Origin: a phage
Assembly: GCA_030873995.1 (NCBI GenBank)
Contig: GCA_030873995.1_4701.1
Direction: 5' to 3' (one strand)
DNA: 45,609 bases
A program made the translations under genes and the position numbers. The notes below the pieces were generated by a model, which was not told where the DNA came from, made no database searches, and was given only the letters and a program-made list of their open reading frames with translations. This document shows, one piece after another, positions 1,715 through 26,582 of the stretch. Numbering within the stretch: position 1 is the first letter of the stretch; each line of letters opens with the position of its first letter.

Positions 1715-2172
1715 TACGTCAAGCATCTTTCTTAGATATACCTGAGATTATTAATCTTGGTGACAAATATGTAGAAGAGGAAGTTAATGTTGTAGCACAC
1801 CACTCCCCTTCATGGAATGCAGAACAAAGCGCAGCAAACCTGTGTGCATCTCTTGTTCGAGATGATTTATTCTTATGGGTTGCTGTAGATGAGGGTAGTA
1901 TTGTAGGGTTCCTGTGGGCTGGATATCATGACTTAGCCCCTTGGACACAAGTGCGTGTTGCATCTGATATTCTTTTCTACATCGTACCAGAGAAGCGTGG
2001 CACTCTCTTAGGAATGAGGCTTATCAAAGCCTATAAGCAATGGGCTTTTGAGAAGGAATGTGCTGAAGTGAGGCTGTCTATTGCCTCTGGTATCAATGAA
2101 GAGCGTGTCGGGCGTATGTATGAGTTGTTAGGCTTCAAGACGTTCGGCACTGTGTATAACCTAAAACTTTAA
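1711..2172 (+). CDS. GNAT-family N-acetyltransferase (putative)
   Basis: 153 aa; acetyl-CoA motif-A-like PEKRGTLLGMRLI followed by conserved aromatic/acidic residues. Confidence 0.55.
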   Translation: MIRQASFLDIPEIINLGDKYVEEEVNVVAHHSPSWNAEQSAANLCASLVRDDLFLWVAVDEGSIVGFLWAGYHDLAPWTQVRVASDILFYIVPEKRGTLLGMRLIKAYKQWAFEKECAEVRLSIASGINEERVGRMYELLGFKTFGTVYNLKL

Positions 2173-2181
2173 GGAGGCAAT

Positions 2182-2391
2182 ATGGGTGTCGTGAAGAAGG
2201 CATTTAAAGCAATCGGTCTTGCATCTGAGACGCCGAAAATTGAGGCAGCTAAGGCTCCGGCGCAACAGCTAGAGCGTCAGCCTGAGACGGAAGCAGAAGA
2301 TGTAACGCTGGGTCAAGACGATGACACCACAACCACTTCTCGTGGTAAGCGTGGGCTTGTTCGTCCGGTTGCATCTAGTTTAGGAGTATAA
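2182..2391 (+). CDS. small virion protein, T7 gp6.7-like (putative)
   Basis: 69 aa, acidic with basic C-terminal SRGKRGLVRP; AAGGAGG RBS; directly upstream of portal. Confidence 0.45.
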   Translation: MGVVKKAFKAIGLASETPKIEAAKAPAQQLERQPETEAEDVTLGQDDDTTTTSRGKRGLVRPVASSLGV

Positions 2392-2392
2392 T

Positions 2393-4842: not shown

Positions 4843-4848
4843 TTCAGT

Positions 4849-4871
4849 ATTTACTGGACACTATAGAAGGG
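4849..4871 (+). promoter_or_regulatory. phage-RNAP promoter ATTTACTGGACACTATAGAAGGG (capsid promoter)
   Basis: Exact consensus; +1 G at 4866; followed by 5' hairpin GGGAGAAAAGTTCTCCC (4869..4885). Confidence 0.85.
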
Positions 4872-4921
4872 AGAAAAGTTCTCCCTAGTTATCAATTTGA
4901 TTTATAAGGAGATTATAACAC

Positions 4922-6130: not shown

Positions 6131-6139
6131 TAACCTATG

Positions 6140-6175
6140 CCCTATCTACCTTGCGTAGGTAGGGTTCTTTTGTTT
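6140..6175 (+). terminator. late hairpin terminator after the capsid gene
   Basis: 10-bp stem CCCTATCTAC/GTAGGTAGGG, 5-nt loop, then TTCTTTTGTTT. Confidence 0.75.
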
Positions 6176-6185
6176 AGGAGGATTC

Positions 6186-6926
6186 ATGCCTTTAATTCAA
6201 AATACAAGTGATGTTGGACGTATCATGGCTGAGGCTTCCTTCAATATCATTGATAGCAAGCTGGAAGCAGTTAACCTGTGTATGCGAGCTATTGGTCGTG
6301 AGGGTGTGGATTCCCTTGACTCTGGCGACTTAGATGCTGAAGATGCTAACAAGATTATTGATATTGTCTCACAACGTTTCCAATACAATAAGGGCGGTGG
6401 TTGGTGGTTTAACAGAGAACCTAACTGGTTACTTAAACCTGACACAAATGGTGAAGTGAACATGCCAAACAATTGCCTTGCTGTTCTCCAATGCTATGCT
6501 CTGGGTGAACGTAAAGTCCCTATGACTATGCGCGCAGGTAAACTGTACTCTGTTTGGAATCACACTTTCGACATGTCAAAGTATGTGAATCAGGATGGGC
6601 GTATTAGGTTGACTTTGGTAACATTGCTGCCTTTTGAGCATCTACCTGCAAGCGTAATGCAAGCCATTGCCTATCAGGCTGCCGTAGAGTTTATTGTGTC
6701 TAAAGATGCAGATAAGACTAAACTACAAGCACACCAGCAGATTGCAGCACAATTGATGATTGATGTTCAGTCAGAGCAGTCTTCTCAGAAGAGACTTAAT
6801 ATACTTGTACATAACCCCACTCAGCGCAACTTTGGCATTATGGCAGGTGGCTCTCAGAATGTACCAGCGTTCTCCTATTCACCTTATGACACTTACCCTG
6901 TAAGGCCGTGGGAGGTTGATAGATAA
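6186..6926 (+). CDS. tail tubular protein A (gp11-like)
   Basis: N-terminal block IGREGVDSLDSGDLDAEDANKII...GGGWWFN resembles the T7 gp11 N-terminus as recalled. Confidence 0.75.
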   Translation: MPLIQNTSDVGRIMAEASFNIIDSKLEAVNLCMRAIGREGVDSLDSGDLDAEDANKIIDIVSQRFQYNKGGGWWFNREPNWLLKPDTNGEVNMPNNCLAVLQCYALGERKVPMTMRAGKLYSVWNHTFDMSKYVNQDGRIRLTLVTLLPFEHLPASVMQAIAYQAAVEFIVSKDADKTKLQAHQQIAAQLMIDVQSEQSSQKRLNILVHNPTQRNFGIMAGGSQNVPAFSYSPYDTYPVRPWEVDR

Positions 6927-9331
6927 TGGAAGTACAAGGCTCTTTAGGTCGTCAGATTCAAGGTATTAGCCAACAACCAGCAGCAGTGCGGTTAGATGGT
7001 CAATGTACTGATATGGTTAATATGGTTCCAGATGTAGTCAACGGTACACAATCTCGCATGGGAAGCACACACATTGCTAGGCTTCTTGATTCTGGTGACG
7101 AAAACATGGCAACACATCATTACCGCAGAGGTGATGGTGTAGAGGAATATTTCTTCATTATGAAGAAAGGTAGCGTGCCAGAAATATTTGACAAAGAAGG
7201 TCGTAAATGCACTGTGACCTCTCAGGATGAACCTATGGCCTATCTTGCTGAGGTTGTGAACCCGAGAGAAGACGTGCAGTTCATGACTATTGCTGATGTA
7301 ACATTTATGCTTAACAGGCGTAAAGTAGTGAAAGCTCGTAGTGATAAGTCTCCAAAGGTGGGAAACAAGGCTATTGTGTTTTCTGCCTACGGGCAGTATG
7401 GCACTTCGTACACTATCTCTATTAACGGCGAGCAAGCGGCGACCTTCAAAACTCCAGATGGAAGCGACCCTAGTCATGTAGAACAGATTCGCACTGAGTA
7501 CCTAGCAACTAAGCTATATGAGAGTTTACAGACATGGAGTAAAGCGTCACAGTACACCTTGCAAAGAGAAGGCACTAGTATCTACATTGAAACTAAAGAT
7601 GGTAGTGATTTCACTATTACTACTACAGATGGGGCCAAGGGTAAGGACTTGGTTGCCATAAAGAACCGAGTGTCATCTACAGACTTACTTCCCTCAAGAG
7701 CACCAGAAGGGTACAAGGTACAGGTGTGGCCTACAGGGAGTAAACCAGAATCTCGGTATTGGCTAGAGGCTGTACCTAAAGAGGGAGGTAACTTAGTTGC
7801 TTGGCAAGAAACTATTGCAGCAGATGTGTTACTTGGCTTTGATAAAGACACTATGCCTTATATTATAGAGCGTACAGGGATTGTCGGAGGTGTGGCACAG
7901 TTTAAGATACGACATGGCGATTGGGAAGACCGTAAGGTAGGCGATGACCTGACTAACCCTATGCCTTCCTTTATTGATGAAGATGTACCACAGGCGATTG
8001 GTGGTATGTTCATGGTGCAGAACCGTCTTTGTGTCACAGCAGGAGAAGCTGTCATAGCAACTAGGACTTCTCACTTCTTTGACTTCTTCCGCTTCTCCGC
8101 AGTGTCTGAGGTTGCAACAGATCCTTTTGATATTTTCTCAGATGCAAGTGAGGTCTACCAGCTCAAACATGCAGTAACCCTAGATGGGGCAACGATATTA
8201 TTCTCAGACACATCTCAGTTCATACTTCCTGGGGATAAAGTATTAGAGAAATCTAATGTCATACTCAAGCCTGCTACAACTTTCGAAGTGGATAATAGGG
8301 TGTCACCTGTGGCAACTGGTGAATCCGTGATGTTTGCTACAAGTGAAGGTGCTTACTCTGGTGTGCGTGAGTTTTATACCGACTCTTACAGCGACACTAA
8401 GAAAGCACAGGCTGTTACTAGTCATGTTAACAAGTTGATAGAAGGTAATATAACTCATATGGTTGCTAGCACTAATATCAACAGGTTACTTGTGGTAACA
8501 GACAGGGACCCTAATATTGTCTATTGCTATGACTGGTTGTGGCAAGGGACAGATCGTGTACAATCTGCATGGCATAAGTGGGTGTGGCCTAAAGATACTT
8601 TGATTCGCTCTATGTTCTATTCCTCAGAGGTATTGTATCTCCTTGTAGAACGAGGTAATACTGGTTTGTATCTAGAGGTGATGGATATGGGTGATGCTCT
8701 TACTTATGGTTTAGTTGACAGAATTAGACTGGATAGGCAAGCAGAGTTGATCTTCACCTATGATGCTAATACAGACCAGTGGGTTTCTAATGAGTTGCCT
8801 TGGAAGCCTACTGACCCAGCCTTACTTGAGTGTGTGATAATTCAAGGGTGGCCTGCTTATATTGGTGGTTCTTTTCATTTTGAATATGATGAAGCCAGTA
8901 ATAAGCTAATTACAACTTTTGATTTATCAGAAGAAGGCACTAATGCTATAGCTGTCGTAGGGCAGTTGTATCAGCAGGAGTTTGAGCCAACACAGGTCGT
9001 TATTCGAGATAACCAAGATAGAGTGTCCTACATAGATGTGCCAGTGGTAGGCCTAGTTCACCTTAACTTGGATAAATACCCTGACTTTGAAGTTCATATC
9101 AAGAACTTAAAGAGTGGCAAATTAAGAAAGGCTTTGGCATCTAACAGGAAAGGCGGGGCACTTAATAATGTTGTTGGTTATGTCAAGCCAGAAGAGGGGT
9201 CATTCAAATTTCCACTAAGATCCCTTAGTACAGATACTGTTTATCGTATCATTGTTAACTCCCCTCATACATTCCAACTCAGGGATATTGAGTGGGAAGG
9301 TTCGTATAACCCAACTAAGAGGAGGGTATAA
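6926..9331 (+). CDS. tail tubular protein B (gp12-like)
   Basis: 801 aa, size and position as T7 gp12. Confidence 0.8.
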   Translation: MEVQGSLGRQIQGISQQPAAVRLDGQCTDMVNMVPDVVNGTQSRMGSTHIARLLDSGDENMATHHYRRGDGVEEYFFIMKKGSVPEIFDKEGRKCTVTSQDEPMAYLAEVVNPREDVQFMTIADVTFMLNRRKVVKARSDKSPKVGNKAIVFSAYGQYGTSYTISINGEQAATFKTPDGSDPSHVEQIRTEYLATKLYESLQTWSKASQYTLQREGTSIYIETKDGSDFTITTTDGAKGKDLVAIKNRVSSTDLLPSRAPEGYKVQVWPTGSKPESRYWLEAVPKEGGNLVAWQETIAADVLLGFDKDTMPYIIERTGIVGGVAQFKIRHGDWEDRKVGDDLTNPMPSFIDEDVPQAIGGMFMVQNRLCVTAGEAVIATRTSHFFDFFRFSAVSEVATDPFDIFSDASEVYQLKHAVTLDGATILFSDTSQFILPGDKVLEKSNVILKPATTFEVDNRVSPVATGESVMFATSEGAYSGVREFYTDSYSDTKKAQAVTSHVNKLIEGNITHMVASTNINRLLVVTDRDPNIVYCYDWLWQGTDRVQSAWHKWVWPKDTLIRSMFYSSEVLYLLVERGNTGLYLEVMDMGDALTYGLVDRIRLDRQAELIFTYDANTDQWVSNELPWKPTDPALLECVIIQGWPAYIGGSFHFEYDEASNKLITTFDLSEEGTNAIAVVGQLYQQEFEPTQVVIRDNQDRVSYIDVPVVGLVHLNLDKYPDFEVHIKNLKSGKLRKALASNRKGGALNNVVGYVKPEEGSFKFPLRSLSTDTVYRIIVNSPHTFQLRDIEWEGSYNPTKRRV

Positions 9332-10056
9332 TGGCAGTAATGGCAACAGTAGGATCAAGCCTAGCCAGTATGTTCTCCAGTAGTGCAGGTGCTGCGGCTG
9401 CTAGTAGTGCTGCTGGTAGTGCCGCCGCTGGGAGTGGTGGTGTGCTTGGCTCTGTCGGAAGTTTCTTAGGTGGAAGCTCTGCTGGCTTTTCTAATGCAGG
9501 TTTGTTGTCTGCTGGACTACAAGGCTTAAACTTACTAGGCGGCCTATTCGGTGGACGAGATACCGCTAAGGCTATGCAGAAAGCACAAGAAGAAGAGTGG
9601 AGACAAAGGCTAGAAGCCACACGTGAAGCCTATTCTTCTGTGGCAAATGCAGAACGGTCTGCTGCAAAGCAATATCATTCTGACTTCCTTAATAATCAAA
9701 TTTCACTGATGCAGCAACGAGCGCAAGTTGCAGTAATGGCAGGTGCTACTGGAACAGGTGGTAGCTCCATCACATCCATGCTCAATGATTTGACGGCAGA
9801 AGGCGGTCGTAATCAGTCAACCATTATAGATAATTATGAGAATCAGCAAATCAGCTTTGCCAACCAGTTGAAGTCTATTCAACGCAGTGGACAGATGCAG
9901 ATGCGAACGTTTGACAAACCTTCCGCTTTGGGTACTTTGGTGAAAGGTATACCAAGCCTTGCATCTTCTTATGTCACCGGAAGTAAAGCAGGTATGGCGC
10001 TTGGCAAGGCTATCACTGAGTCTCGTACTTATTCATCAGGAACTAGAGGAGTTTAA
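9331..10056 (+). CDS. internal virion protein (gp14-like)
   Basis: 241 aa, Gly/Ala/Ser-rich N-terminus; first of three ejection-protein genes after tail tube B. Confidence 0.55.
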   Translation: MAVMATVGSSLASMFSSSAGAAAASSAAGSAAAGSGGVLGSVGSFLGGSSAGFSNAGLLSAGLQGLNLLGGLFGGRDTAKAMQKAQEEEWRQRLEATREAYSSVANAERSAAKQYHSDFLNNQISLMQQRAQVAVMAGATGTGGSSITSMLNDLTAEGGRNQSTIIDNYENQQISFANQLKSIQRSGQMQMRTFDKPSALGTLVKGIPSLASSYVTGSKAGMALGKAITESRTYSSGTRGV

Positions 10057-12999
10057 ATGGCAATTGAACGTCAAGCTGTACAAGGTTTAGAAAGAGTACA
10101 GTCAAGGGGTGCGCCAATGCCTATGTCTTTCACACCACGACAAGTGAGTATCTCAGGGGGCGCTGATGCCTCCGGTAGTAGATTTTTGGAAGACTTAGTA
10201 AACGCCGCAAGTAGTGTGGCTGATGTCACTACTGCTATCCTTAATCAGCAAGTAGAAGACGATAAGGTTCGCCAGATGGATAGGGCTTTGTCTGGCATGA
10301 TGCCTTCTGAGGATGCCACGGTAGGCGGTGCTCGTGCTCATATGCTGGTTAGTTTACAAAATGATGTAATCGCACAGACAACTGCGCTACAAGCAGAAGC
10401 ACAGCGATTTCAAGGTAGTGACGAGGATTGGGAAAACTATGTAGTTCAATCTCGTAATGAGGTACAAAATAGGTTATGGCAAAGTTATCCAGAGCTTCGT
10501 GGTGACAAAGATTCTATGAGGCTTGTCACTAACGCGTTCATGGAGCAGCAACCTAGAATTACTGCAACTAGAGCAGAGGCTAAACTTCGTCAAGAAGAAG
10601 AAGCACGAATGCAATCTATGCAGTCTCGTATTATCATGGCTACAAGGGACGTAGCGCCAGATGCCACTGGTGCAGCTCTTATCCAGCTACAAAAAGAAGC
10701 ACTGGCGATGGGTCTTAGTAAACCTGAGTTTGATCAAATGGTTGCTAAGATTGCATCTGAAAGAGCGGCAGTAGGAGATGATAGTCTTATTCAGGGAACC
10801 AAGGCATTGGTGGATGATAAGGGTGTCTCTTTGTATGACCGTGTTGGTGCTTTGCAAACTGGAGAAATTCAAGCTAACAGAACTTGGGCTGCTCAGAATC
10901 AGGTTGCCCTCTTCGAGAAGAAAGATGCAGCTATAAAGGCATTCGATGCAGGGCAACTTACTCGCGAAGAGTTACTTCAGGTGATGCAGAATCACAATGA
11001 ATTGACTGGTGGCACTGCTTGGTCTGATAGCGAGATCAAGGCTATCTTCGATAGGCAAGCTAAGGTTAATGCAGAGAAAGCAAAGCTAGAAGATCTTATT
11101 GCACGAGGTGAATCTGGGTCGCCTTTAGGCTTACAGGACATTAGTAAGGATGACAGAAAGACATATGCTGAAGCCTTAGTTAGTACCTACACTAAGCTGG
11201 CAGAAGATGAAATTGCCCGTACTGGTGCAACGGGAGAACAGGCTGAAGCTATTCGCGGTAGGTATGAGCAGATGCGTTATCTTAAATTGGGTCAACAGCT
11301 TATTGAAGACCCGATCATTAAGGAAAGGTATTCGTCGCTTATGCAGCTATCCTCTGCCAACCTCAAGGATATGAATGTTGAACCTGAAGCACTGCAAACT
11401 ATCATGCGAGCACGTGATTCTATTCCAGAGGATGCACGTCGTGCTGTTATGGGAGACAAAGAATATGCCTTTGTTGAGAACTATGACTTAGCAACTCGCA
11501 TGGGGTATAACACAGGTCAAGCTATTGAGTTTGCACAGAATGCCTCTCGCGGCGAGAAATTACAAGGTTCTGTGCTCAAAGAACTTAATGATGATGTAGA
11601 TGGAGTAGTTAGTGACATTGCAGGAGGCAGCTGGCTCACTTTTGGTGATAACATGAGTGAAATGGGACGTGACATTATGATGGAGGAGGCAAGTACAATT
11701 GCTAGAGCAATGAAGGTTGCAGGCCATAATAATGACACTATTAAGCGTCACCTTAAATCCTACCTTACAAGCCAGTATACACAATTATCAGAAGGTTTCT
11801 TTACTCAAGGTGTTCTTGTAAAAGGAGACATTCGTACGTTAGGAGATACTATAGGAGTAAACCAAGGAGACGTCCCAATTACTCTCCGTCAGTACCTAGA
11901 TAATAACAAACAAGCCCTGCTAGATGCATCAGGTGGGTTAGAGGAAGGCGACCTATATTTTGATGTAGATGCGAAGCGCGGCCTCTTTACTATACGTGCA
12001 GGCTCTGGTCGTGTGCCTGTTACACAGGCAATGCCTTTGTCTGAAATCAAAGGGCAATCCTTGCTTAAGCAACGGTATGATGCAGAGGTTAAAGCACGTG
12101 ATGAAGGGCGTAAGAACTTTGAAGCACAACAAATGCGAATGTGGGGCGCAGGTGGCTACCAAGCACAACCACCTGCAAAGACTACAGCCAAAACTGTAGG
12201 CTCACGTGGGATTGCTGACTTCTTAATGTCACCTGCCTTTGCATCAGGCGAGAATCTACCAGCAAACTTTGAGTTCGGATATAAGAGAAATAATATGGAC
12301 TTCTACAATTATGTAGCCAAGATGGAGAATAATGCCAATGTAGGTTTTGACCGAGTAGCTGGTGTTTATACACCATACAAAGATGCACATGGTCAGTCTG
12401 TAGGGTACGGTCACTTCCTTACTACTGAAGAGAAGAAGAACGGATACATTATGATTGGTACAGAGAAAGTGCCATTCACTCCGGGACAATCTCAATTAAC
12501 ACCAGAACGAGCCATGCGCCTTCTACAGCAAGACTTGAAGAGTCATGTGCCAAGTACTTCAGGATGGGCTGTTCCCTTCGAAGAGATGCACCCAGGTGTT
12601 CAGCGTGGCCTTATGGACTTGTCCTATAATTTAGGAAAAGGCGGGATCCAGAATGCTCCTAAGGCATACGCTGCATTTAAGGCTGGCAAGTTTACTGATG
12701 GCTTCATCGAGATGCTATCTACTGCATCTACTGAAGGCAAGCGCAGCACTGGATTGTTAGTTCGTAGGGCGGAAGCTTATAACCTTGCACAGAGTGGTGG
12801 TGCTATCCCTAAGATTAGTGAAGTGGAGACACGAGCAGATGGATCTATGTATGTGAAGTTTGCAGGACAGATGTCAGAGGCTTTCGTAAATAAATCAATC
12901 TACAATCAGATTGGTAAGGATGGGTGGATGCAAGTGTATCCTCCAAAGCAAGGTGCACTTGCACCTAACACTCAGATTGGTAGAATCAAACTGAGCTAG
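10057..12999 (+). CDS. internal virion protein (gp15-like) with C-terminal T4-lysozyme-like (GH24) domain
   Basis: 980 aa; region GQSVGYGHFLTTEE...GVQRGLMDLSYNLGKGG aligns to the T4 lysozyme core as recalled. Confidence 0.7.
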   Translation: MAIERQAVQGLERVQSRGAPMPMSFTPRQVSISGGADASGSRFLEDLVNAASSVADVTTAILNQQVEDDKVRQMDRALSGMMPSEDATVGGARAHMLVSLQNDVIAQTTALQAEAQRFQGSDEDWENYVVQSRNEVQNRLWQSYPELRGDKDSMRLVTNAFMEQQPRITATRAEAKLRQEEEARMQSMQSRIIMATRDVAPDATGAALIQLQKEALAMGLSKPEFDQMVAKIASERAAVGDDSLIQGTKALVDDKGVSLYDRVGALQTGEIQANRTWAAQNQVALFEKKDAAIKAFDAGQLTREELLQVMQNHNELTGGTAWSDSEIKAIFDRQAKVNAEKAKLEDLIARGESGSPLGLQDISKDDRKTYAEALVSTYTKLAEDEIARTGATGEQAEAIRGRYEQMRYLKLGQQLIEDPIIKERYSSLMQLSSANLKDMNVEPEALQTIMRARDSIPEDARRAVMGDKEYAFVENYDLATRMGYNTGQAIEFAQNASRGEKLQGSVLKELNDDVDGVVSDIAGGSWLTFGDNMSEMGRDIMMEEASTIARAMKVAGHNNDTIKRHLKSYLTSQYTQLSEGFFTQGVLVKGDIRTLGDTIGVNQGDVPITLRQYLDNNKQALLDASGGLEEGDLYFDVDAKRGLFTIRAGSGRVPVTQAMPLSEIKGQSLLKQRYDAEVKARDEGRKNFEAQQMRMWGAGGYQAQPPAKTTAKTVGSRGIADFLMSPAFASGENLPANFEFGYKRNNMDFYNYVAKMENNANVGFDRVAGVYTPYKDAHGQSVGYGHFLTTEEKKNGYIMIGTEKVPFTPGQSQLTPERAMRLLQQDLKSHVPSTSGWAVPFEEMHPGVQRGLMDLSYNLGKGGIQNAPKAYAAFKAGKFTDGFIEMLSTASTEGKRSTGLLVRRAEAYNLAQSGGAIPKISEVETRADGSMYVKFAGQMSEAFVNKSIYNQIGKDGWMQVYPPKQGALAPNTQIGRIKLS

Positions 13000-13002
13000 T
13001 GT

Positions 13003-13048
13003 TATACTCAAGGTTTGTCTCACATGTGAGACATGCCTTTATGAATGA
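13003..13048 (+). promoter_or_regulatory. RNase III-type processing site candidate
   Basis: GTTATACTCAAGG - extended hairpin around palindrome 13019..13034 - CCTTTATGAAT; same flanks recur at 39984..40021. Confidence 0.45.
13019..13034 (+). repeat. 16-bp perfect palindrome GTCTCACATGTGAGAC (copy 1)
   Basis: Read directly; flanks extend the stem. Confidence 0.9.
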
Positions 13049-13066
13049 CATTAATTAGGAGGTAAC

Positions 13067-16000
13067 ATGGTTGATAGTATTAACCAAAATTGGGTGGCGG
13101 TGACTCAACGCAAGTTACCGCCTACCTTCTCTCAAGTTGCTGAAGCAGAGCGTAAGGCCGAAGCACAGAGAGCTAATGACAAAGTATTCCAAACAGCCAT
13201 AGAGAGTGAGTGGGCTTTGTATGGTGGACAACGTGCCTATGAACGCCACACTACAGAGTTTGCTGAACAAGAAGGTTATGAAGTACCTGAATCAACTAAG
13301 GATGAACTATCCAAGTTGTATGGGTATGAAATAGCGCAAGACATAGTCAAGAATGTGAAGTCTCCAGAAGAGTTGCAATTCCGTATGTCTAATGCTGCTG
13401 CGGATAAAGACAGAGCAGACATCTTAGCACGTAATGGTTTCACAGGTTTCAGCGCACAGATTGCTGCTGGTATTCTTGACCCTGTAGGTTGGGCGGCTTC
13501 TCTAGTAGCTGCACCTGTAGCTGGTGCTGTCAAAGTAGGTCGTCTAGGTAGGATTATCAAGACGGCTGCCTTATCTGGTGCTGAAAATGCTGCATTAGAA
13601 GCTGTGCTTGCACAAGGTGATTACCAGCGAGGTGTCGATGATGTACTGGCTGCTGCCGGGTTTGGTATGATTATGGGCGGTACTATTGGCGCTGCAACTA
13701 GGGAACGCATAGCCAGTGCTGGTTCTCGTACAGCGGCAGAGAGAGCAGAGGCTGTATTTGATGACTTGGACACCGTAGTAAAAGGTGCTGATGAGTTTGA
13801 CTCGTCTGCTGCTCGTGCTGTACGTGAGGCCATGGAGTATGACGCGTATATGGCAGCACGTAATTATGAACCACTTCGTGCAAGAGAGGTGGATGCAGAT
13901 ATGGCAATTCTATCTCACACAGACAACTTGAAAGCCAATGCGTCGGTAAGGATGAGTGCTAGTGAGAAAGGACTACTGAAGAAACAGATACGCCAACTGG
14001 AAGCAGAAGCAGCCACACTTAAGGGGAAGAAGATAGATGCTGTAGCAGAGGCTGCCGCCGCTAAGGGTGCACCTAAATCTGCTGCGGACAGATTGGATTT
14101 AGATGTTCAGAAGAAAGCACTGGCACGTAGATTCGATGAACCACTTGCTGATTTACAAGCGCGTCTTGATGAGTTGAATGCCAAGTTATCTCGTGCGAAC
14201 AATGTAGGTAAGGCTAAGGAGGAGCTTAAGAGATTCTCATCGCTGTCCCGTGAAGATCAAATAAAGGAACTAGGTTTAGACGCACCAATGCGTAAGGTGG
14301 AGATGACCCGTGCTGTACGAGATGCAGTAGCTGCAATCCGTGCCGAACGTAAGAAGACACCTACCGAGATACATGCTGAACAAGCTGCAGAAGAGGTAAT
14401 CAAGCAAAAGGCAGATGACTCTATTGGTGCTAAACGTGTTGAAGGTTCAGAGATTGCAGGCGAGCAGTTTGACTTATCTAAAAACATGGAAGAACTTATG
14501 GATGACTTGGCACGAGAAGCATATCAGTCAGAGGTGCGGCCTATTAATCTTAAGGGTCTAGGTTCAGTGTCTTCTGTGATTCTTAACTCAGAGAATCCTG
14601 TGTTCCGAGGTCTAGGTCTTCGTCTGCTTGAAAACGCTCAAGGTGGTGCATACCAAGGTAAGACAGCTTCTATCTTATCAGATGTGTATGGCAACCTTAT
14701 TCGTCATGCAGAACGTAACAGGTACAATGATGGTTTCTCTCAATTCATCAAAGATAACAACCTACGTGCGGTAGATTATCTTAACCCTGCAACGACACGG
14801 GATTTCAATAATCAGATTTATACAGCAATTGTTCGTGGCATACCAGAAGATACACCTCGTGGTGTTAAACTGGCAGCAGAAGGTATCGCTGATAAACTCA
14901 AGAAAGCACTTGAGATTCGTAAGCAAGCAGGAGAGCATGGATTCGAAGATATACAATCTGCTAAGGATTACATCCCTGTTATCTATGACGGTATCAAGGT
15001 TACTGAGGCAGTTAACAAATTGGGGAGTAGTGAGGCTGTTATTCACTTACTATCCAAAGGTTACCAGACAGGTAAGTACAAACTTGGCAAGAAAGCTGCG
15101 GATGCCCTAGCAAAAGTACAGTACATTCGTGCATCGGACTCCACCCTCTCTAGTCGTGTTGCATTCGATAGGGTGGTATCCCAGCAGCAGCAGGCTCAAT
15201 TGATTGAGGATCTGAAGAAAGCAGGGGTACCAGACCATATCATTGATAATTTCATTGAAGGTACTGAATTAGCAGAAATGGCTGAATCGGTATCCAATCG
15301 AGCTAAAGCTAGTATGGGTATTAATACGCAAGCCGAATATGGCGGTTTGAAGGTGCAGGATTTGCTTAATACAAACGTAGGGGAGCTAGCGGAGAACTAC
15401 GGCAAAGAGGCAGCGGGTGGTGCTGCATTGGCTGCTATGGGTTTCCCTACTCGCCAATCTGTGCTGAACGCAATAGATGCCGCAGAACGCGCAGGCCGCA
15501 ATATGGCGGGGTCAAATGCTAAGGCAATCAAACAGCTTAGGTCTGAGGCAGAAATGCTCAGAGATGCCGTTAAGTTAATTTACGGCAACACTATCGACGC
15601 CGACCCTAACTCTGGAATTGTCAGGGGTACTCGACGTGTCCGTGAGATTACAGGGTTGTTACGATTAGGCCAAATGGGCTTCGCTCAGATACCTGAACTG
15701 GCACGTGCAATCTCTAAGATGGGACTAGGGACTGTGCTGAAGTCTGTACCTGCCACTAAGTTCTTACGTTCGAGAGCGGCTCGTAAAGGTGGCACTGCTC
15801 AGGGTGAGTTGCTTGAACCTGAACTGCGAGAAATGGAGGAACTCTTAGGTTATATCGGGGAGGATAACTGGCTCACAGGGTGGAATGTCCGTCATGATGA
15901 GTTCGGAGAAACTGCGGATAACCTAGGTAAGCTGTCTGCTATTATTGATAACGGATTAGCTATGGGTAGTAGAATCAACACAATACTATCTGGTTTTAAA

Positions 16001-16870
16001 GCAGTACAAGGTGGCTCAGAGAAGATTATAGCTCGCTCTATCAATAAGCGACTAAAGCAACATTTGATGGGGGAGCGACAGTTACCCAAAGCAGATCTTG
16101 AAGAAGTTGGCCTAAGTGAAGATGTCATGAAGAGACTTAAGCGTCACTTTGATGATAACCCAATGTACGCTGATTACAAAGGTGAAAAAGTTCGTATGAT
16201 GAACTTTGATGCTATGGAGCCAGACCTGAGAGAGACAGTGGGTGTTGCTGTGCGAAGAATGTCAGGACGTCTTATTCAGCGTAACTTCATAGGAGATGAA
16301 GGTATCTGGATGAATAAATGGTGGGGCAAGGCATTGACCCAGTTTAAGTCATTCTCTATTGTCTCTATTGAGAAACAGCTAATCCATGATTTACGAGGAG
16401 ATAAGATTCAGGCTGCACAGATCCTTGCATGGTCTACCTTACTAGGCTATGCATCTTATGCACTACAGATGCAGATGCAAGCAATTGGTAGGGAGGACAG
16501 AGACAAGTTCTTGAGGGATAAGTTCGAGACACAGAATATCGCTATGGGTGTCTTTAATAAACTCCCACAAGTTGCAGGCTTCGGTCTTGCTGGTGATGCT
16601 TTGGCAACATTTGGCCTAATGCCAGACTCTATGATGCAAGCGCCTGGACGTATGGGGTTCCGTCAGCAAGGGTTTGGTGATTTGGTAGCAGGTGCTGGTG
16701 TAATCAGTGATACAGTTAATTTGTCACAAGCACTAGTTAAGTACGCCAACGGAGATGATGATGTCTCTACTCGGCAGTTGGTGGACAAGGTTCGTCGCCT
16801 TGTTCCTTTGGCAAATACTATTGGTGTAGGTCAGATGACTAAAGCCAGTGTAGACTTATTGGAGGATTGA
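13067..16870 (+). CDS. internal virion (core/ejection) protein, gp16-like
   Basis: 1267 aa, position and size as T7 gp16; AGGAGG RBS. Confidence 0.7.
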   Translation: MVDSINQNWVAVTQRKLPPTFSQVAEAERKAEAQRANDKVFQTAIESEWALYGGQRAYERHTTEFAEQEGYEVPESTKDELSKLYGYEIAQDIVKNVKSPEELQFRMSNAAADKDRADILARNGFTGFSAQIAAGILDPVGWAASLVAAPVAGAVKVGRLGRIIKTAALSGAENAALEAVLAQGDYQRGVDDVLAAAGFGMIMGGTIGAATRERIASAGSRTAAERAEAVFDDLDTVVKGADEFDSSAARAVREAMEYDAYMAARNYEPLRAREVDADMAILSHTDNLKANASVRMSASEKGLLKKQIRQLEAEAATLKGKKIDAVAEAAAAKGAPKSAADRLDLDVQKKALARRFDEPLADLQARLDELNAKLSRANNVGKAKEELKRFSSLSREDQIKELGLDAPMRKVEMTRAVRDAVAAIRAERKKTPTEIHAEQAAEEVIKQKADDSIGAKRVEGSEIAGEQFDLSKNMEELMDDLAREAYQSEVRPINLKGLGSVSSVILNSENPVFRGLGLRLLENAQGGAYQGKTASILSDVYGNLIRHAERNRYNDGFSQFIKDNNLRAVDYLNPATTRDFNNQIYTAIVRGIPEDTPRGVKLAAEGIADKLKKALEIRKQAGEHGFEDIQSAKDYIPVIYDGIKVTEAVNKLGSSEAVIHLLSKGYQTGKYKLGKKAADALAKVQYIRASDSTLSSRVAFDRVVSQQQQAQLIEDLKKAGVPDHIIDNFIEGTELAEMAESVSNRAKASMGINTQAEYGGLKVQDLLNTNVGELAENYGKEAAGGAALAAMGFPTRQSVLNAIDAAERAGRNMAGSNAKAIKQLRSEAEMLRDAVKLIYGNTIDADPNSGIVRGTRRVREITGLLRLGQMGFAQIPELARAISKMGLGTVLKSVPATKFLRSRAARKGGTAQGELLEPELREMEELLGYIGEDNWLTGWNVRHDEFGETADNLGKLSAIIDNGLAMGSRINTILSGFKAVQGGSEKIIARSINKRLKQHLMGERQLPKADLEEVGLSEDVMKRLKRHFDDNPMYADYKGEKVRMMNFDAMEPDLRETVGVAVRRMSGRLIQRNFIGDEGIWMNKWWGKALTQFKSFSIVSIEKQLIHDLRGDKIQAAQILAWSTLLGYASYALQMQMQAIGREDRDKFLRDKFETQNIAMGVFNKLPQVAGFGLAGDALATFGLMPDSMMQAPGRMGFRQQGFGDLVAGAGVISDTVNLSQALVKYANGDDDVSTRQLVDKVRRLVPLANTIGVGQMTKASVDLLED

Positions 16871-17829
16871 TGAGTTACACATTCACTGAACATACAGCGA
16901 ATGGCACTCAAACTACTTTCCCCTTCCGGTTCGCTGGGAGAGACAAGGGGTACTTGAGGGCTTCTGATATTTTAGTTGAAGTAAGAAATGATGGCGTGTG
17001 GAACACGGTAAGTGGTTGGACACTTACAGGTACTAACCAGATAACCTTTAATGTACCGCCAGCGGCAAATACAAAACTTCGTATCAGGCGCGTTGTAGAG
17101 AAAGAAGAACCTTACGCCGAGTTTGACCGTGGTGTAACCTTGGATATGAAATCTCTCAATAACTCCTTTATACATCTTTTGGAAGTATCTCAGGAGCTAC
17201 TGGATGGTTTCTATCCAGATGGTTACTTTGTAAAGCAAGATGTATCTTGGGGTGGACATAAGATTACTGATTTGGCTGATGGCACAAATCCGGGAGATGC
17301 AGTAAATAAAGGACAGCTTGATTCCATCGACAAGAAGCATACAGATTGGAACGCCAAACAGGACATTGAGATTGCTGGTCTTAAAGCTGGTATGACTTCT
17401 GGTATTGCGCACAGAACTGTTCCTTGGTACACGATAGCCCAAGGTGGTGAGATTTCCGTAAAGCCCCCTTATGAATTTCAAGATGCACTAGTTTTCCTTA
17501 ATGGGGTATTGCAGCACCAAATTGTAGGCGCATACTCTATAAGCAACAACACTATCACTTTCGCAGAGCCGCTTGTGGCTGGTACAGAGGTGTATGTGTT
17601 GGTAGGTAGTCGTGTTGCTACATCTGAACCTAATATTCAGTTAGAGTTGAATTTTGACTTAGTAGAAGGCCAACAAGTAGTAAAGATTGGCTCTGCATTT
17701 AAGTATATTGAGGTTTATCTTGATGGACTATTACAACCTAAACTTACTTATCGGGTAGATGGTGACACTGTTACTTTCTCAGAGGGAGTGCCAGAATGCC
17801 GGATGACTGCTAAGATTATCACAGAATAA
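16870..17829 (+). CDS. tail fiber adaptor (gp17 N-terminal-domain-like)
   Basis: 320 aa resembling only the N-terminal tail-attachment domain of T7 gp17; no receptor-binding part. Confidence 0.7.
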   Translation: MSYTFTEHTANGTQTTFPFRFAGRDKGYLRASDILVEVRNDGVWNTVSGWTLTGTNQITFNVPPAANTKLRIRRVVEKEEPYAEFDRGVTLDMKSLNNSFIHLLEVSQELLDGFYPDGYFVKQDVSWGGHKITDLADGTNPGDAVNKGQLDSIDKKHTDWNAKQDIEIAGLKAGMTSGIAHRTVPWYTIAQGGEISVKPPYEFQDALVFLNGVLQHQIVGAYSISNNTITFAEPLVAGTEVYVLVGSRVATSEPNIQLELNFDLVEGQQVVKIGSAFKYIEVYLDGLLQPKLTYRVDGDTVTFSEGVPECRMTAKIITE

Positions 17830-18027: not shown

Positions 18028-18459
18028 ATGTACTCAGAAGTTGAAAGAGCAGGATACATCATAAGAGAAGATGGTGTTATCTTGAGCAAGAAGGGACAAC
18101 CGATGGTTGGTGCTATTCGTGAAAGAGGATACCGCACAGTAACATTAAGGATAGATAATAAATCCAAGACTTATAAAGTACATAGGTTGACTGCATGGAA
18201 GCATGTGCCGAACCCTCATAACTATAAGGTTGTTAACCATAAAGACCGCAACCCATCTAATTGCCATAAAGATAACCTAGAGTGGTGCACTCAACAGGAA
18301 AACACTATACATGCACACTATGGTTGTCTTGACATACAAGATAAAATAGATGAAGCCAAAGCATTAAGAAGCCAAGGCTGGTCTTATCCTAAAATCGGTA
18401 AATACTTTGGGTTAGACCATAAGACTGTTTGGTATTGGATTAATGGGAGAAGAACTTGA
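18028..18459 (+). CDS. HNH homing endonuclease
   Basis: 143 aa; motif HKDRNPSNCHKDNLEWCTQQEN; inserted between holin and terminase small subunit. Confidence 0.75.
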   Translation: MYSEVERAGYIIREDGVILSKKGQPMVGAIRERGYRTVTLRIDNKSKTYKVHRLTAWKHVPNPHNYKVVNHKDRNPSNCHKDNLEWCTQQENTIHAHYGCLDIQDKIDEAKALRSQGWSYPKIGKYFGLDHKTVWYWINGRRT

Positions 18460-18755: not shown

Positions 18756-20653
18756 TGGCTAAGGCAAGAGAATCACAAGCGGAGGCTCTTGCCAGATGGG
18801 AGATGCTACAGGAGTTACAGCAGACCTTTCCTTACACAGCGGAAGGTTTGCTTCTCTTTGCAGACACAGTTATTCATAACTTGATTGCAGGCAACCCTCA
18901 TCTGATTCGTATGCAGGCTGATATCTTGAAGTTCCTATTCTACGGACACAAGTACCGCCTCATCGAAGCGCCTCGTGGTATCGCTAAGACAACACTATCA
19001 GCAATCTATACGGTATTCCGTATTATTCATGAACCGCATAAGCGTATCATGGTTGTGTCCCAAAACGCCAAGCGAGCAGAGGAAATCGCAGGTTGGGTAG
19101 TTAAAATCTTCCGTGGCTTAGACTTTCTTGAGTTTATGCTGCCGGATATCTACGCTGGGGACCGTGCATCCGTTAAGGCGTTTGAGATTCATTACACCCT
19201 ACGTGGTAGTGATAAGTCTCCTTCTGTATCCTGTTACTCAATCGAAGCAGGTATGCAGGGTGCTCGTGCTGATATTATTCTAGCGGATGACGTAGAGTCG
19301 ATGCAGAATGCTCGTACGGCAGCGGGCCGTGCCTTGCTTGAGGAACTGACTAAGGAGTTTGAATCTATCAACCAGTTTGGGGATATCATTTACCTTGGTA
19401 CACCTCAGAACGTAAACTCTATCTACAACAACCTACCTGCTCGTGGTTACTCTGTTCGTATCTGGACTGCGCGTTACCCTTCAGTAGAGCAAGAGCAATG
19501 TTATGGCGACTTCCTTGCACCTATGATTGTTCAAGATATGAAGGACAACCCAGCACTTCGCTCAGGGTACGGGTTGGATGGTAATAGTGGTGCACCTTGT
19601 GCCCCTGAAATGTATGATGATGAAGTCCTGATTGAGAAGGAAATCTCTCAGGGTGCTGCTAAGTTCCAGCTTCAGTTCATGCTTAACACTCGCATGATGG
19701 ATGCTGACAGATACCCATTACGCCTGAACAATCTAATCTTCACCTCGTTTGGTACAGAGGAAGTCCCTGTGATGCCTACGTGGAGTAATGATTCCATAAA
19801 CATCATTGGTGATGCACCTAAGTATGGTAACAAGCCTACGGATTTCATGTACAGACCTGTAGCTCGCCCATACGAATGGGGTGCTGTCTCCCGCAAGATT
19901 ATGTATATTGACCCTGCGGGTGGTGGTAAGAACGGAGATGAGACGGGTGTAGCCATCATATTCCTGCACGGCACATTCATTTATGTGTATCAGTGCTTTG
20001 GTGTACCTGGCGGATACCGAGAGTCGTCCCTGAATCGCATTGTGCAGGCCGCAAAGCAGGCGGGTGTTAAAGAGGTATTCATTGAGAAGAACTTTGGTCA
20101 TGGAGCGTTTGAGGCGGTAATTAAGCCGTACTTTGAACGAGAGTGGCCTGTAACTCTGGAAGAGGATTACGCCACCGGACAGAAAGAGTTGCGTATCATT
20201 GAGACGCTGGAGCCGCTCATGGCAGCCCATAGGCTTATCTTCAATGCAGAGATGGTGAAGTCAGACTTTGAGTCGGTACAGCACTATCCGCTTGAACTAC
20301 GCATGTCCTACAGTCTTTTCAATCAAATGTCGAACATAACGATTGAGAAGAACAGCCTCCGGCACGATGACCGCCTAGACGCCCTGTATGGCGCTATACG
20401 GCAATTAACTTCTCAGATAGACTATGACGAGGTTACACGGATTAATCGCCTCAGAGCGCAGGAGATGCGCGATTACATCCATGCTATGAATACACCTCAT
20501 CTACGCAGGGCAATGCTATATGGAGATTACGGTACTGAGCGAAGAGTGACCAACACTTCCGTAGCGATGCAGCAGCGAGTTTACGGGCAGAACTGCCGAA
20601 ATAAATCGGCAAGCAGAAATACACTTTCTGCAAGGATTTCAAGGACTTATTAA
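18755..20653 (+). CDS. terminase large subunit
   Basis: 632 aa, T7 gp19-like; AAGGAGG RBS; start overlaps upstream stop. Confidence 0.9.
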   Translation: MAKARESQAEALARWEMLQELQQTFPYTAEGLLLFADTVIHNLIAGNPHLIRMQADILKFLFYGHKYRLIEAPRGIAKTTLSAIYTVFRIIHEPHKRIMVVSQNAKRAEEIAGWVVKIFRGLDFLEFMLPDIYAGDRASVKAFEIHYTLRGSDKSPSVSCYSIEAGMQGARADIILADDVESMQNARTAAGRALLEELTKEFESINQFGDIIYLGTPQNVNSIYNNLPARGYSVRIWTARYPSVEQEQCYGDFLAPMIVQDMKDNPALRSGYGLDGNSGAPCAPEMYDDEVLIEKEISQGAAKFQLQFMLNTRMMDADRYPLRLNNLIFTSFGTEEVPVMPTWSNDSINIIGDAPKYGNKPTDFMYRPVARPYEWGAVSRKIMYIDPAGGGKNGDETGVAIIFLHGTFIYVYQCFGVPGGYRESSLNRIVQAAKQAGVKEVFIEKNFGHGAFEAVIKPYFEREWPVTLEEDYATGQKELRIIETLEPLMAAHRLIFNAEMVKSDFESVQHYPLELRMSYSLFNQMSNITIEKNSLRHDDRLDALYGAIRQLTSQIDYDEVTRINRLRAQEMRDYIHAMNTPHLRRAMLYGDYGTERRVTNTSVAMQQRVYGQNCRNKSASRNTLSARISRTY

Positions 20654-20674
20654 TTACTGGACACTATAGAAGGA
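20652..20674 (+). promoter_or_regulatory. phage-RNAP promoter after terminase
   Basis: AATTACTGGACACTATAGAAGGA; +1 G at 20669. Confidence 0.8.
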
Positions 20675-20805
20675 AGGCCCAGATAATAAGAGAAATAACA
20701 AGGATAATATAGTTAACCTAGGTTATATAGGTTACTATAGTATGGGTGTACTCCTGTACACCCTATTCCTACTTACTATTTACTTATATGTATAAGGAGT
20801 ATTAG

Positions 20806-21087
20806 ATGGCTAATGATTATAGTGATCAACCTTTAACTGGTCGATATGACCGTAAGCAGATTACACCGACCAGTGAGGCATTAATGCTCCCTGTTGTTAC
20901 AGAGGAGTCTATTACGAAGAAAGCCAATGTTATCAATGATGCAACCAAATCTGGTAAACAGAAAGCAGCAATGGTATGTCGTCCTGTAGGTGGCACTCTT
21001 GAGGTTGCCATTGCTACTGGTAGCAAAGAGGATGCAGATTGGTTGTCTGTTAAAATGGACAGCGTTGGTCTTATTACACCGGCTTAA
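20806..21087 (+). CDS. hypothetical protein, tandem paralog A
   Basis: 93 aa; shares SGKQK(A/G)AMV...(V/I)AIA(T/R)GS...D.W with 21105..21392; AAGGAG RBS. Confidence 0.5.
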   Translation: MANDYSDQPLTGRYDRKQITPTSEALMLPVVTEESITKKANVINDATKSGKQKAAMVCRPVGGTLEVAIATGSKEDADWLSVKMDSVGLITPA

Positions 21088-21104
21088 TAAAAGGAGAAGA
21101 TAAT

Positions 21105-21392
21105 ATGTCTAAGTATGGCGATGCAGGTACGACTACTGGTCAGGTTTTTCGTGTAAAAGCAGTACAAACTATTGCAACTGCAATTCCTATGCCTATCGTG
21201 GCAGAAGCTGACCTTAAAAAGAAAGATCATCCAATTAATATTGAACACCTATCTGGTAAGCAGAAAGGTGCTATGGTGGTTGTAGATAAAGGAGATAGCC
21301 TTTATATTGCTATTGCGCGTGGCTCTGCACCAACTGACAAGTGGGATGCAACTACTATGGAGGTGACACCTGTCACTCCAGAAGGGGATTAA
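21105..21392 (+). CDS. hypothetical protein, tandem paralog B
   Basis: 95 aa, paralog of 20806..21087; AAAGGAG RBS. Confidence 0.5.
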   Translation: MSKYGDAGTTTGQVFRVKAVQTIATAIPMPIVAEADLKKKDHPINIEHLSGKQKGAMVVVDKGDSLYIAIARGSAPTDKWDATTMEVTPVTPEGD

Positions 21393-21394
21393 TA

Positions 21395-21739
21395 ATGCTT
21401 AACAAATACTTCAAGCGTAAAGAGTTCGCTTGCCGTTGTGGGTGCGGTACATCCACTGTTGATGCTGAATTACTACAGGTAGTCACAGATGTGCGTGAGC
21501 ACTTTGGTTCTCCTGTAGTTATCACTTCGGGGCATCGCTGTGCTAAGCACAATGCTAATGTAGGAGGAGCTAAGAACTCCATGCATCTTACTGGTAAGGC
21601 TGCTGACATTAAGGTACGAGGCATCTTACCTTCTGATGTACATAAGTATCTTACTGATAAGTACCAAGGCAAGTATGGTATTGGTAAGTATACCTCCTTT
21701 ACTCATATTGATGTACGTAACGGGTGTGCACGATGGTAG
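21395..21739 (+). CDS. endolysin, peptidase M15 family
   Basis: 114 aa; zinc-peptidase signature SGHRCAKHN...SMHLTGKAADI; start trimmed from ORF 21341 to the RBS-supported ATG. Confidence 0.8.
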   Translation: MLNKYFKRKEFACRCGCGTSTVDAELLQVVTDVREHFGSPVVITSGHRCAKHNANVGGAKNSMHLTGKAADIKVRGILPSDVHKYLTDKYQGKYGIGKYTSFTHIDVRNGCARW

Positions 21740-24398: not shown

Positions 24399-26582
24399 AT
24401 GCTTCAAAGATTAGGGGCAATGTTTGTTCGGTACAAAAATAAAGTAGGTAATGCTATCGAGCGTACACTACAAAGTAAATTACAGGATGTAGTAAGTGTA
24501 AAGGATTATGGCGCTATTGGTGATGGAGTATATCGTTCACTTGGTGCTAAATTTACCACGTTAAGTATGGCACAAGTAGTATACCCGCATGCGGAAAGTT
24601 TAACTCAATCGCAAGATTGGGCGGCTATTCAGGCTGCACTTAATTCTCACTCAAAAGTGTACATTCCAGCAGGTAAGTACATGCTATCTGATACCATTGA
24701 GATGCGCGGCGGTCAAACTCTGCAAGGTGACGGTATTGATTCTTGGGTTGCAGGTTATGCTGGGTTTGTAAAAGATAATCAAGGCACTCACCTCATAATG
24801 GTGGGAGATGGAAATAAGAAGTATACATTAGATCATGTATCTAACTTCGATGTAGAAGGTGGTGTCATAGACAACCCAGCGAAGAGTGATGCTTATACTG
24901 CCACTGCACCTTCCCCTAATTACTCATTTACTAACTTCACTAACGCTAACGCCTCTGGTGCACAACGTGCTACATTGAAACCTTTCAGCGTAGCATTACG
25001 TTGCACAGGTCACGGTGGTGTTTATCTTCGTGACTTCCGTATTGTGCCTAATCACAGAGGGCAAGAAGGTTATAAGGATGAGTTGTCAACTGCATTAGGG
25101 GACGCATGGGATGTAGGTATTTGGCTGGAGAATACATCTGACTCAGTGTTATCTTCTGTGCAAGCAGTTGGTTACTGGCGTATTGCAGGTGTTATGAAGA
25201 CTTGTATTCCACAAGAGGGTTCCTTTGTTGGTGGAGAGCGTGATAGGATATACAATTGCACATTACAAGGTTATCGTGGTTTCTTAGCACGTTCGCATGA
25301 TACTTACCAAGTAGAAGAAGTATCAGGTAACACTGTATCGATTAAGTGGTCTGCATCTCACACTTTCGAACCTTCTGGTAAAGTTCGTATCCAAGGGAAA
25401 GACCGTAGTTATACTAGCCTGTCTGTATCTGGTGACAAATTAGTCTTCAATGGTATTGACGATGTATCAGGTATTAATACCAATAGCTATGTGAGAGTTT
25501 CAGGGTCTTCATTCGGAATGTCTGCTACTCAACTAAATAACACATACATCGCTGCATTAAACCATCATGCTCGCTTGCCAGCAACCTCTAATCTTTTAGA
25601 TAATAGGTTTTCTACTTCGGCAGCTTGCTATGAAGTTGCAGGTGAACCAATTCGTGCCATAAAATTATCTAACTGTACTGTCATTACTTGGGATGACATC
25701 TTAGGTATGACTGGTGGTATTCGGGATTTCCAGACGACAGATACTTACTTCGAGTCTCAGCCTTTCCGTACTTCTGTGCAAGGCTTGGCAAGCACCACAC
25801 AACCTGCTGGTTCTCGCATGATTGCACTTCGTGGACGTCAAGGTTCTAAAACTACAGGATATCAAGCTATCGGTTGTACTTATGGGCCAGGTGTAGACTT
25901 AAGTCCTCGTTATGAAAGCGATGTATCTCGTTACACAACTTCAGGTGGTATGTTCAATCCAAGAGAAGATTTGAACACAACTAAGCAGTTACCAATGAGG
26001 CAAGACGCTACTGAGCTATCTTCTACTTCTGACTTATTCCTTACACATGCTGTAGGGCGGAAGGCCTATGTTGGCGCTACCTCTGGTGATGCAACGCTTC
26101 AATCTAGAACTGGATCATTGAATATCCAATCAGGACTTCGTGTACGGATTGGTGGCACTGATGGTAGTGGTTGGTATATTGCTGACAGTGCTAAGTTGAC
26201 ACCTACTGCTGACAATGCAAGGGCTTGTGGACAGCCTAATGGACGATGGACTGTTGTCTATGCTGTTAATGGTACAATCCAGACTTCTGATGGTAGATTC
26301 AAGGAAATCCTTGAGATTGAACAGGCAGAACTTGATGCTGGTCTTGAATTATCAGCAAACCTAATTAAGTATCGGTGGAATGGGGAAGATAAAATTCACT
26401 TTGGTTGCATAGCACAAGAAGTGATGTTAATACTGGAGAAACATGGCCTAGACCCATTACAATATGATATGGTTCAGTATGATGAGGAGGCAGACATCTT
26501 TGGGGTAAACTATGCTGAACTCAACAGCTTCTGTATTGCAGCATTATCGAGGAAGTTAAATGCCATTAATAAAATCAGTTAA
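24399..26582 (+). CDS. tailspike 2 with C-terminal intramolecular chaperone (peptidase S74-like) domain
   Basis: 727 aa; VKDYGAIGDG signature; C-terminal SDGRFKE...HFGCIAQE; AAGGAGG RBS. Confidence 0.75.
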   Translation: MLQRLGAMFVRYKNKVGNAIERTLQSKLQDVVSVKDYGAIGDGVYRSLGAKFTTLSMAQVVYPHAESLTQSQDWAAIQAALNSHSKVYIPAGKYMLSDTIEMRGGQTLQGDGIDSWVAGYAGFVKDNQGTHLIMVGDGNKKYTLDHVSNFDVEGGVIDNPAKSDAYTATAPSPNYSFTNFTNANASGAQRATLKPFSVALRCTGHGGVYLRDFRIVPNHRGQEGYKDELSTALGDAWDVGIWLENTSDSVLSSVQAVGYWRIAGVMKTCIPQEGSFVGGERDRIYNCTLQGYRGFLARSHDTYQVEEVSGNTVSIKWSASHTFEPSGKVRIQGKDRSYTSLSVSGDKLVFNGIDDVSGINTNSYVRVSGSSFGMSATQLNNTYIAALNHHARLPATSNLLDNRFSTSAACYEVAGEPIRAIKLSNCTVITWDDILGMTGGIRDFQTTDTYFESQPFRTSVQGLASTTQPAGSRMIALRGRQGSKTTGYQAIGCTYGPGVDLSPRYESDVSRYTTSGGMFNPREDLNTTKQLPMRQDATELSSTSDLFLTHAVGRKAYVGATSGDATLQSRTGSLNIQSGLRVRIGGTDGSGWYIADSAKLTPTADNARACGQPNGRWTVVYAVNGTIQTSDGRFKEILEIEQAELDAGLELSANLIKYRWNGEDKIHFGCIAQEVMLILEKHGLDPLQYDMVQYDEEADIFGVNYAELNSFCIAALSRKLNAINKIS

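Follow-up and report, generated by a model that had tools for sequence, protein, structure and literature searches.

A conserved pair of small paralogous genes between the large terminase and endolysin genes of a Vectrevirus

Described relatives and the genome of the window phage

Three genes are located between the large terminase (TerL) and endolysin genes of Klebsiella phage Kp7 (GenBank ON148527). Kp7_45 and Kp7_46 code for 88 amino acids (aa) each and are annotated 'minor capsid protein'; the 178-aa product of Kp7_47 is named 'minor capsid protein with Ig-domain' and consists of one domain of the module described below and a C-terminal Ig domain. Gp32, gp45, gp46 and gp47 of Kp7 were listed as minor capsid proteins after SDS-PAGE and mass spectrometry of purified virions (10.1101/2024.05.19.594906, sec. 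3.4). The term 'minor capsid' in that preprint may simply denote a small protein found in virions. For gp41 to gp43 of the phages K1E, K1-5 and SP6 a function was not described in the literature consulted. RefSeq and PHROGs name the family (phrog_2725) 'acetyl-CoA acetyltransferase', a label that goes back to the entry for K1E gp42 ('putative Acetyl-CoA acetyltransferase', CAJ29453), from which it was propagated. The annotators of phage LL11 commented on these genes as 'most likely a duplication region'.

The stretch of DNA analysed here, referred to as the window (45.6 kb), is a complete, rotated genome of a Vectrevirus (K1E/K1-5/SP6-like Autographiviridae, subfamily Molineuxvirinae). The two genes of interest are gp41 and gp42 of K1E/K1-5. 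They follow the genes for the adaptor, a holin-like protein, an HNH endonuclease, the small and the large terminase, and they precede those for an M15 endolysin, a holin, an Rz-like spanin and two tailspikes. Over positions 20600-21450 the identity is 99.9 % with Vectrevirus T205P4 and 99.6 % with Escherichia phage EC120. Gp42 is identical to its EC120 counterpart and gp41 shares 98.9 % identity; both protein sequences also occur unchanged in public collections, on a contig listed under E. coli. The genes by themselves are ordinary; they are identical or nearly identical to genes of already sequenced phages. The interest lies in a correction of their annotation and in a possible three-domain socket.

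The genome is a mosaic. A block from portal to internal virion proteins (~1500-16900) is R4596/LL11-like, and its two large internal virion proteins have just 39-43 % identity to the AAPEc6/K1E counterparts. The adaptor, terminase and lysis genes, the first tailspike and most early genes are AAPEc6-like at 97-99 %. The second tailspike (24399-26582, 727 aa) combines a pectate-lyase-like domain with a C-terminal Peptidase_S74 chaperone; positions 24500-26500 had no nucleotide match in R4596 or AAPEc6, and its receptor specificity likely differs from that of the compared relatives. An HNH endonuclease of 143 aa, which also contains an HTH domain, is encoded at 18028-18459, just 5' of the small terminase gene. 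AAPEc6 and EC120 have an HNH gene at a different place, between the genes of the small and the large terminase. The Vectrevirus major capsid protein (MCP; 4922-6130, ~400 aa) has a C-terminal extension of ~40 aa that is absent from the Kp7 protein (363 aa, PDB 7y3t), and its residues ~333-345, just before this extension, vary among phages.

The gene pair, its expression signals and its age

The initial annotation had described two adjacent ORFs as paralogs with a common core (SGKQK-AMV ... AIA-GS ... D-W) and had named a pairwise alignment as a check. The alignment bore this out: 32 of 83 positions were identical (39 %, BLASTP, E=1e-12 in a single comparison). Homologs were gathered for gp42 (102 clusters) and gp41 (70 clusters), and 68 sequences from both paralog groups were aligned. 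Thirteen columns were invariant in both groups (T11, G12, R16, P30, N45, S50, G51, K52, Q53, A56, A71, W80 and P92), among them the SGKQ, A.G and W motifs of the proposed core. Both proteins matched the PHROG profile phrog_2725 end to end (E=3e-36 for gp41, E=7e-45 for gp42) and carry the motif set TG..R.K / P.V / N / SGKQ.GA / A.G / W / TP. On the basis of sequence they belong to the known, poorly characterised phrog_2725 or Kp7 gp45-46 family. The module is predicted to comprise a flexible basic N-terminal arm (TGxxxRxK), a small beta-barrel core (SGKQxGA, AxG, W) and a C-terminal (I/V)TP(A/V) tail. A profile search in all six frames of the window found neither a third copy nor a remnant of one, so that the phage carries exactly two.

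Table 1. Features of the gene pair and its surroundings, with positions in the window
Feature	Position	Strand	Remark
Large terminase (TerL)	ends 20653		5' flank of the gene pair
Phage-RNAP (SP6/K1E-type) late promoter	20652..20674	+	overlaps the terminase stop codon; exact GGACACTATAGAAGGA at 20659-20674
Two conserved hairpins in the 5' leader between late promoter and gp41	20704..20763	+	RNA fold and alignment
Ribosome-binding site AAGGAG of gp41	20794..20799	+	read from sequence; 6-nt spacer to the ATG at 20806
gp41-type paralog, 93 aa	20806..21087	+	position-1 ortholog group (K1E gp41, SP6 gp42, PM93 gp41, Kp7 gp45)
Ribosome-binding site AAGGAG of gp42	21091..21096	+	read from sequence; 8-nt spacer to the ATG at 21105
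gp42-type paralog, 95 aa	21105..21392	+	position-2 ortholog group (K1E gp42, SP6 gp43, PM93 gp42, Kp7 gp46)
M15 peptidase endolysin	21395-21739		3' flank of the gene pair

The location between terminase and endolysin, the strong ribosome-binding sites of both ORFs and the promoter upstream of them, all pointed out in the initial annotation, were found as described (Table 1). Ten sites for the phage RNA polymerase are present in the window, with 0.36 expected by chance, and the promoter in front of the pair is one of just two without a mismatch to GGACACTATAGAAGGA. An alignment showed that it is kept in 10 Molineuxvirinae, and the pair reads as a late unit. The second of the two leader hairpins is GC-rich (GGGTGTAC-TCCT-GTACACCC at 20744-20763), and its stem is kept through two-sided changes in SP6 (GGGAGGTA..TACCTCCC) and Kp7 (GGGTACTC..GAGTACCC). 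The annotation of phage R4596 names it a 'terminator', yet it is located downstream of the promoter; its role may thus lie in RNA processing or stability, or in a partial termination of the terminase transcripts.

All-against-all scores separated the homologs into a position-1 and a position-2 group, each mutually best, with separate orthologs for both positions in Vectrevirus, Zindervirus SP6, Acadevirus (Proteus) PM93 and Klebsiella phage Kp7. These orthology groups indicate that the duplication, as judged from sequence comparison, is old and predates the Molineuxvirinae radiation and the divergence of these genera; they do not agree with a local duplication, as originally proposed. The slot directly downstream of TerL in the late region is occupied by the family in the window, K1E, AAPEc6, CrRp3, SP6, PM93, EcoP_B, Kp7, PP99 and uncultured contigs. 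A position held in such distant Autographiviridae and uncultured relatives can hardly be called accessory. Pairwise Nei-Gojobori estimates for ten phages gave a median omega of 0.037 for the terminase, 0.30 for gp41, 0.20 for gp42 and 0.16 for the endolysin. By these estimates gp41 and gp42 are under purifying selection, relaxed in comparison to the terminase; a selection for divergence does not fit the two medians. Degeneration of the ORFs, which would have spoken against the initial annotation, does not apply, since the two genes are conserved and evolve under purifying selection. From its interpretation, local duplication and selected divergence in an accessory position, there remain the paralogy, the late unit and an evolution faster than that of the neighbouring terminase; the duplication event, the position and the mode of selection have to be seen differently.

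Gp41 comes in discrete allele types: the window protein is 61-63 % identical to those of K1E and AAPEc6, at a TerL identity of 99 %. These large jumps between phages look like an exchange of allele types rather than an adaptive burst, because dS is high too. The gp41/gp42 allele type of the window matches the R4596-like portal-to-core block, and the terminase and lysis flanks are AAPEc6-like. Among nine Vectrevirus genomes, MCP was the only structural protein whose pairwise identity correlated positively with that of gp41 (r=0.34), with two exceptions (ULINTec4, LL11) and a Fisher's exact p of ~0.2 (hand calculation, genomes not independent). This co-inheritance is weak and suggestive at most, and it was not relied upon.

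Family architecture and evidence from virions

A set of 1.8 billion representative proteins was searched with a profile, which yielded 235 relatives. According to our own count among the best 150 of these, ~35 have three domain copies, ~11 have two and none has more. The three-copy relatives are proteins of 260-300 aa with tandem domains of ~85 aa, and the motifs GD.KRK, P.V, N, SGK..G, A.G, W and TP are kept in each repeat. The 3-repeat gene follows directly after a T7-type TerL in the uncultured Autographiviridae-like contigs L003 and L005, one of which is a 44.8-kb genome; a search of viral contigs for loci related to the single proteins P0173 and P0245 gave no match. An AF2 model of one 3-repeat protein was confident and compact (pLDDT 85, pTM 0.79), the model of a single domain was mediocre (pLDDT 68). 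The pTM value, on which this point is based, suggests that the three repeats may pack in a pseudo-threefold manner. In a comparison of gp41, gp42 and the third paralog with the fused repeats 1, 2 and 3, one-to-one pairing was limited to gp42, which is close to repeat 2. Downstream of the 3-repeat gene, L005 (10855-11453; also L006, 7776-8374) contains a fourth, partial domain copy, the two halves of which were matched in separate frames. Decay of the copy, a frameshift introduced by sequencing or programmed frameshifting would account for this. A Tad2-like (anti-Thoeris family) protein is encoded among the early genes of the same uncultured relative (L005, 12141-12410).

Separate genes are the other arrangement: SP6, Kp7, R4596 and CrRp3 have three separate copies each, in SP6 with the short gp44 as third copy (E=4e-8). 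Several relatives carry one N-terminal copy of the module fused to a different domain. The partner is an Ig domain in P0258 (Pfam Ig_3; Hoc-like PHROGs), a tail-needle knob of the Sf6 type (PF16532) in P0248 and P0302, a segment matching head-fibre PHROGs in P0313, and an uncharacterised 150-aa domain in P0310 (phrog_32357). The terminal ITP(A/V) motif recurs after the inserted domain in several of the fusions. In 31 sequenced phages, R4596 and CrRp3 among them, gp42 is immediately followed by a third gene of the P0310 type. In Ralstonia phage Reminis (L008, 700-978 and 4001-4762) a short copy follows the terminase gene, and a second copy, encoded behind the tailspike gene, carries a fused Sf6-type knob. 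Pectobacterium phage PP99 (L007, 3836-4739) and Vibrio phage JSF38 encode the knob on its own, in a gene that directly precedes the short copy.

Experimental evidence for these proteins in particles comes from the mass spectrometry of Kp7. Window gp41 is 40 % identical to Kp7_45 (E=3e-18) and gp42 is 51 % identical to Kp7_46 (E=8e-20). By analogy with these 40-51 % identical orthologs, reported in one preprint, gp41 and gp42 are most likely present in the virions of the window phage. The window MCP matched PDB 7y3t (E=9e-183), which we take as the Kp7 capsid because its chain has the length of Kp7 gp35 and because 7y22 and 7xyc, its sister entries, come from Kp7. The entry 7y3t lists seven chains, all of them MCP, and the Kp7 portal-tail complex has been deposited as well (7y22); the Kp7 structures are cited as unpublished. 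A comparison of PDB chains with the domain profile gave no match, thus none in 7y3t or 7y22. Hence proteins of the gp45-46 type do not form a rigid, fully occupied and modelled component of either structure. This may be due to flexibility, to a substoichiometric copy number, to absence from icosahedral sites, to omission during modelling or to a location at symmetry-mismatched positions such as the centres of hexamers. The Ig domain of Kp7_47 matched PDB chains named 'Decoration protein' (5lxk, E=3e-16; 8zvi, E=6e-17), of which 5lxk is T5 pb10, as well as chains named 'tail protein' and 'neck whiskers'.

Candidate functions and comparison with known systems

We favour, at somewhat better than an even chance, a role of gp41 and gp42 as late-expressed small virion proteins, in which the phrog_2725 module is a base for particle attachment and oligomerisation that works in threes, probably on the capsid. 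The basic N-terminal arm would contact the shell, i.e. the MCP, and three barrels would assemble into one unit of three domains. Such a unit could be formed by three paralogs, by two paralogs in a 2:1 ratio or by a single fused chain as a pseudo-trimer. One member could in addition bear a distal domain, which would then point away from the particle. The capsid surface is the probable location of the complex, and a symmetry-mismatched position such as the hexamer centres is possible. For a phage with two base paralogs and no display domain, a stabilising role would be likelier than adhesion; the base-only complex in the window phage would act as a minor structural or stabilising decoration rather than as an adhesin. 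With two copies instead of three, the idea of a strict trimer is strained for this phage.

The small proteins might also belong to the tail or neck, for instance as a dock or as the base of a whisker in the vicinity of adaptor and tailspikes. The genes share the late cluster with the tailspike genes, the module is fused in relatives to fibre-like segments and to the knob fold of the Sf6 tail needle, matches in BFVD, a library of predicted viral structures, include proteins annotated as pectate lyase, SGNH esterase or tail fibre, and the similarity of the Kp7_47 Ig domain to tail and neck chains points in the same direction. The depositors of Kp7 name gp45 to gp47 capsid proteins, however, the portal-tail complex 7y22 contains no matching chain, and a co-variation of gp41 with the types of adaptor, tail tube or portal was not detected in the nine Vectrevirus genomes (r between -0.1 and -0.2); we regard the tail or neck as an unlikely location. 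The lack of such a chain in the deposited virion models, together with the placement immediately 3' of the terminase and 5' of the endolysin gene, would also agree with non-structural late proteins that co-purify with virions and either assist in assembly or packaging or act together with the endolysin, for example as a separate SH3-like subunit for binding to the cell wall. This is still less probable: the synteny tracks the terminase and not the lysis genes, as in L005, where the 3-repeat gene is followed by early genes without an adjacent endolysin, and the knob-bearing copy of Reminis sits behind a tailspike gene. Fusions to Ig, knob and fibre domains suit exposed virion proteins rather than cytoplasmic factors, and the Kp7 orthologs were detected in virions by mass spectrometry. 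An endolysin partner of the SH3b type was tried as a specific candidate and rejected, as neither an SH3b fold nor an obligate linkage to a lysin was found.

A host-interacting function had been suggested initially, and accessory proteins for host interaction or anti-defence under diversifying selection would explain that gp41 and gp42 evolve faster than the terminase, that gp41 occurs in distinct allele types at nearly constant TerL, and that a variable third gene comes and goes beside the pair. Omega values of 0.2-0.3 reveal no non-synonymous excess, however, and the high dS indicates allele exchange; the expression is late and not early, and 13 residues are invariant across both paralogs. 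Moreover, gp41 and gp42 consist of the shared ~85-aa domain and lack a distal binding domain; domains of the adhesion type (Ig, knob, fibre) are located on the third paralog or in fusions, which are absent here. We consider this function very improbable for the pair itself. Practically no credence is given to acetyl-CoA acetyltransferases (thiolases), for which the name in RefSeq and PHROGs is the one argument. Thiolases have ~390 aa, so that 93 and 95 aa correspond to a quarter of the enzyme. Neither protein had a Pfam match at E<=0.1, including PF00108 and PF02803, or an NCBIfam match near its cut-off. The invariant columns of the 68 family members contain no Cys or His, thus the catalytic Cys/His/Cys set is missing, a sequence match in the PDB was not found, and thiolases were not among the fold matches. 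On all of these counts, i.e. Pfam, NCBIfam, PDB, fold and catalytic residues, the enzyme assignment was rejected. The wrong name is spreading through RefSeq and PHROGs for a family that occurs in well over 100 therapeutic-candidate coliphages and phages of Klebsiella, Salmonella and Proteus, and it should be replaced by 'minor virion protein'.

A wider reading, which we consider doubtful, would see the family as a structurally new capsid-anchoring module of SP6-like and related Autographiviridae. The three-domain socket would sit at symmetry-mismatched capsid sites and hold swappable Ig, TNF-like knob or fibre domains, forming a second, head-borne adhesion system beside the tailspikes; the window phage would carry a bare socket of two paralogs. 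If a trimeric capsid socket exists, it would provide a handle for the display of cargo on particles of the K1E/SP6 type, and the coming and going of the variable third gene at this locus would be explained.

Among described virion proteins, trimeric cement or decoration proteins of the lambda gpD type have an N-terminal arm. They resemble the window pair in their small size, in the suggested threefold unit and in the flexible arm predicted here, but a similarity in fold or sequence was not found, and the Kp7 capsid model has no ordered decoration at the threefold sites. A fold in common with the solved decoration types (gpD-like, Dec/OB-fold, Hoc/pb10, alpha-claw, Peru-2 P2_50) was likewise not detected. 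P2_50 of Vibrio phage Peru-2 is an Ig-like minor capsid protein of ~12 kDa that forms pentamers on the 11 non-portal vertices (PMC13320782; PDB 9ZKX, GenBank PX516383). As proposed for the window pair, it is a small minor capsid protein of a T7-like phage, and it is absent from T7; P2_50 itself is abundant (PMC13320782). As far as the published description allows a comparison, its seven-strand Ig-like sandwich with a C-terminal helix differs from the small barrel predicted for gp41 and gp42, and P2_50 may be regarded as a functional analogue. The longer paralogs resemble T5 pb10 and T4 Hoc, which combine capsid binding with an Ig-like display domain, in their arrangement of an N-terminal anchor and a C-terminal Ig domain. 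Gp41 and gp42 of K1E/K1-5 and gp42 to gp44 of SP6 share the family (phrog_2725) and the synteny with the window pair. Kp7 differs from the window phage in its third paralog with a C-terminal Ig domain, but its gp45 and gp46 are orthologs of the window pair, within the same subfamily Molineuxvirinae, in the same slot between TerL and endolysin and with the same motif set.
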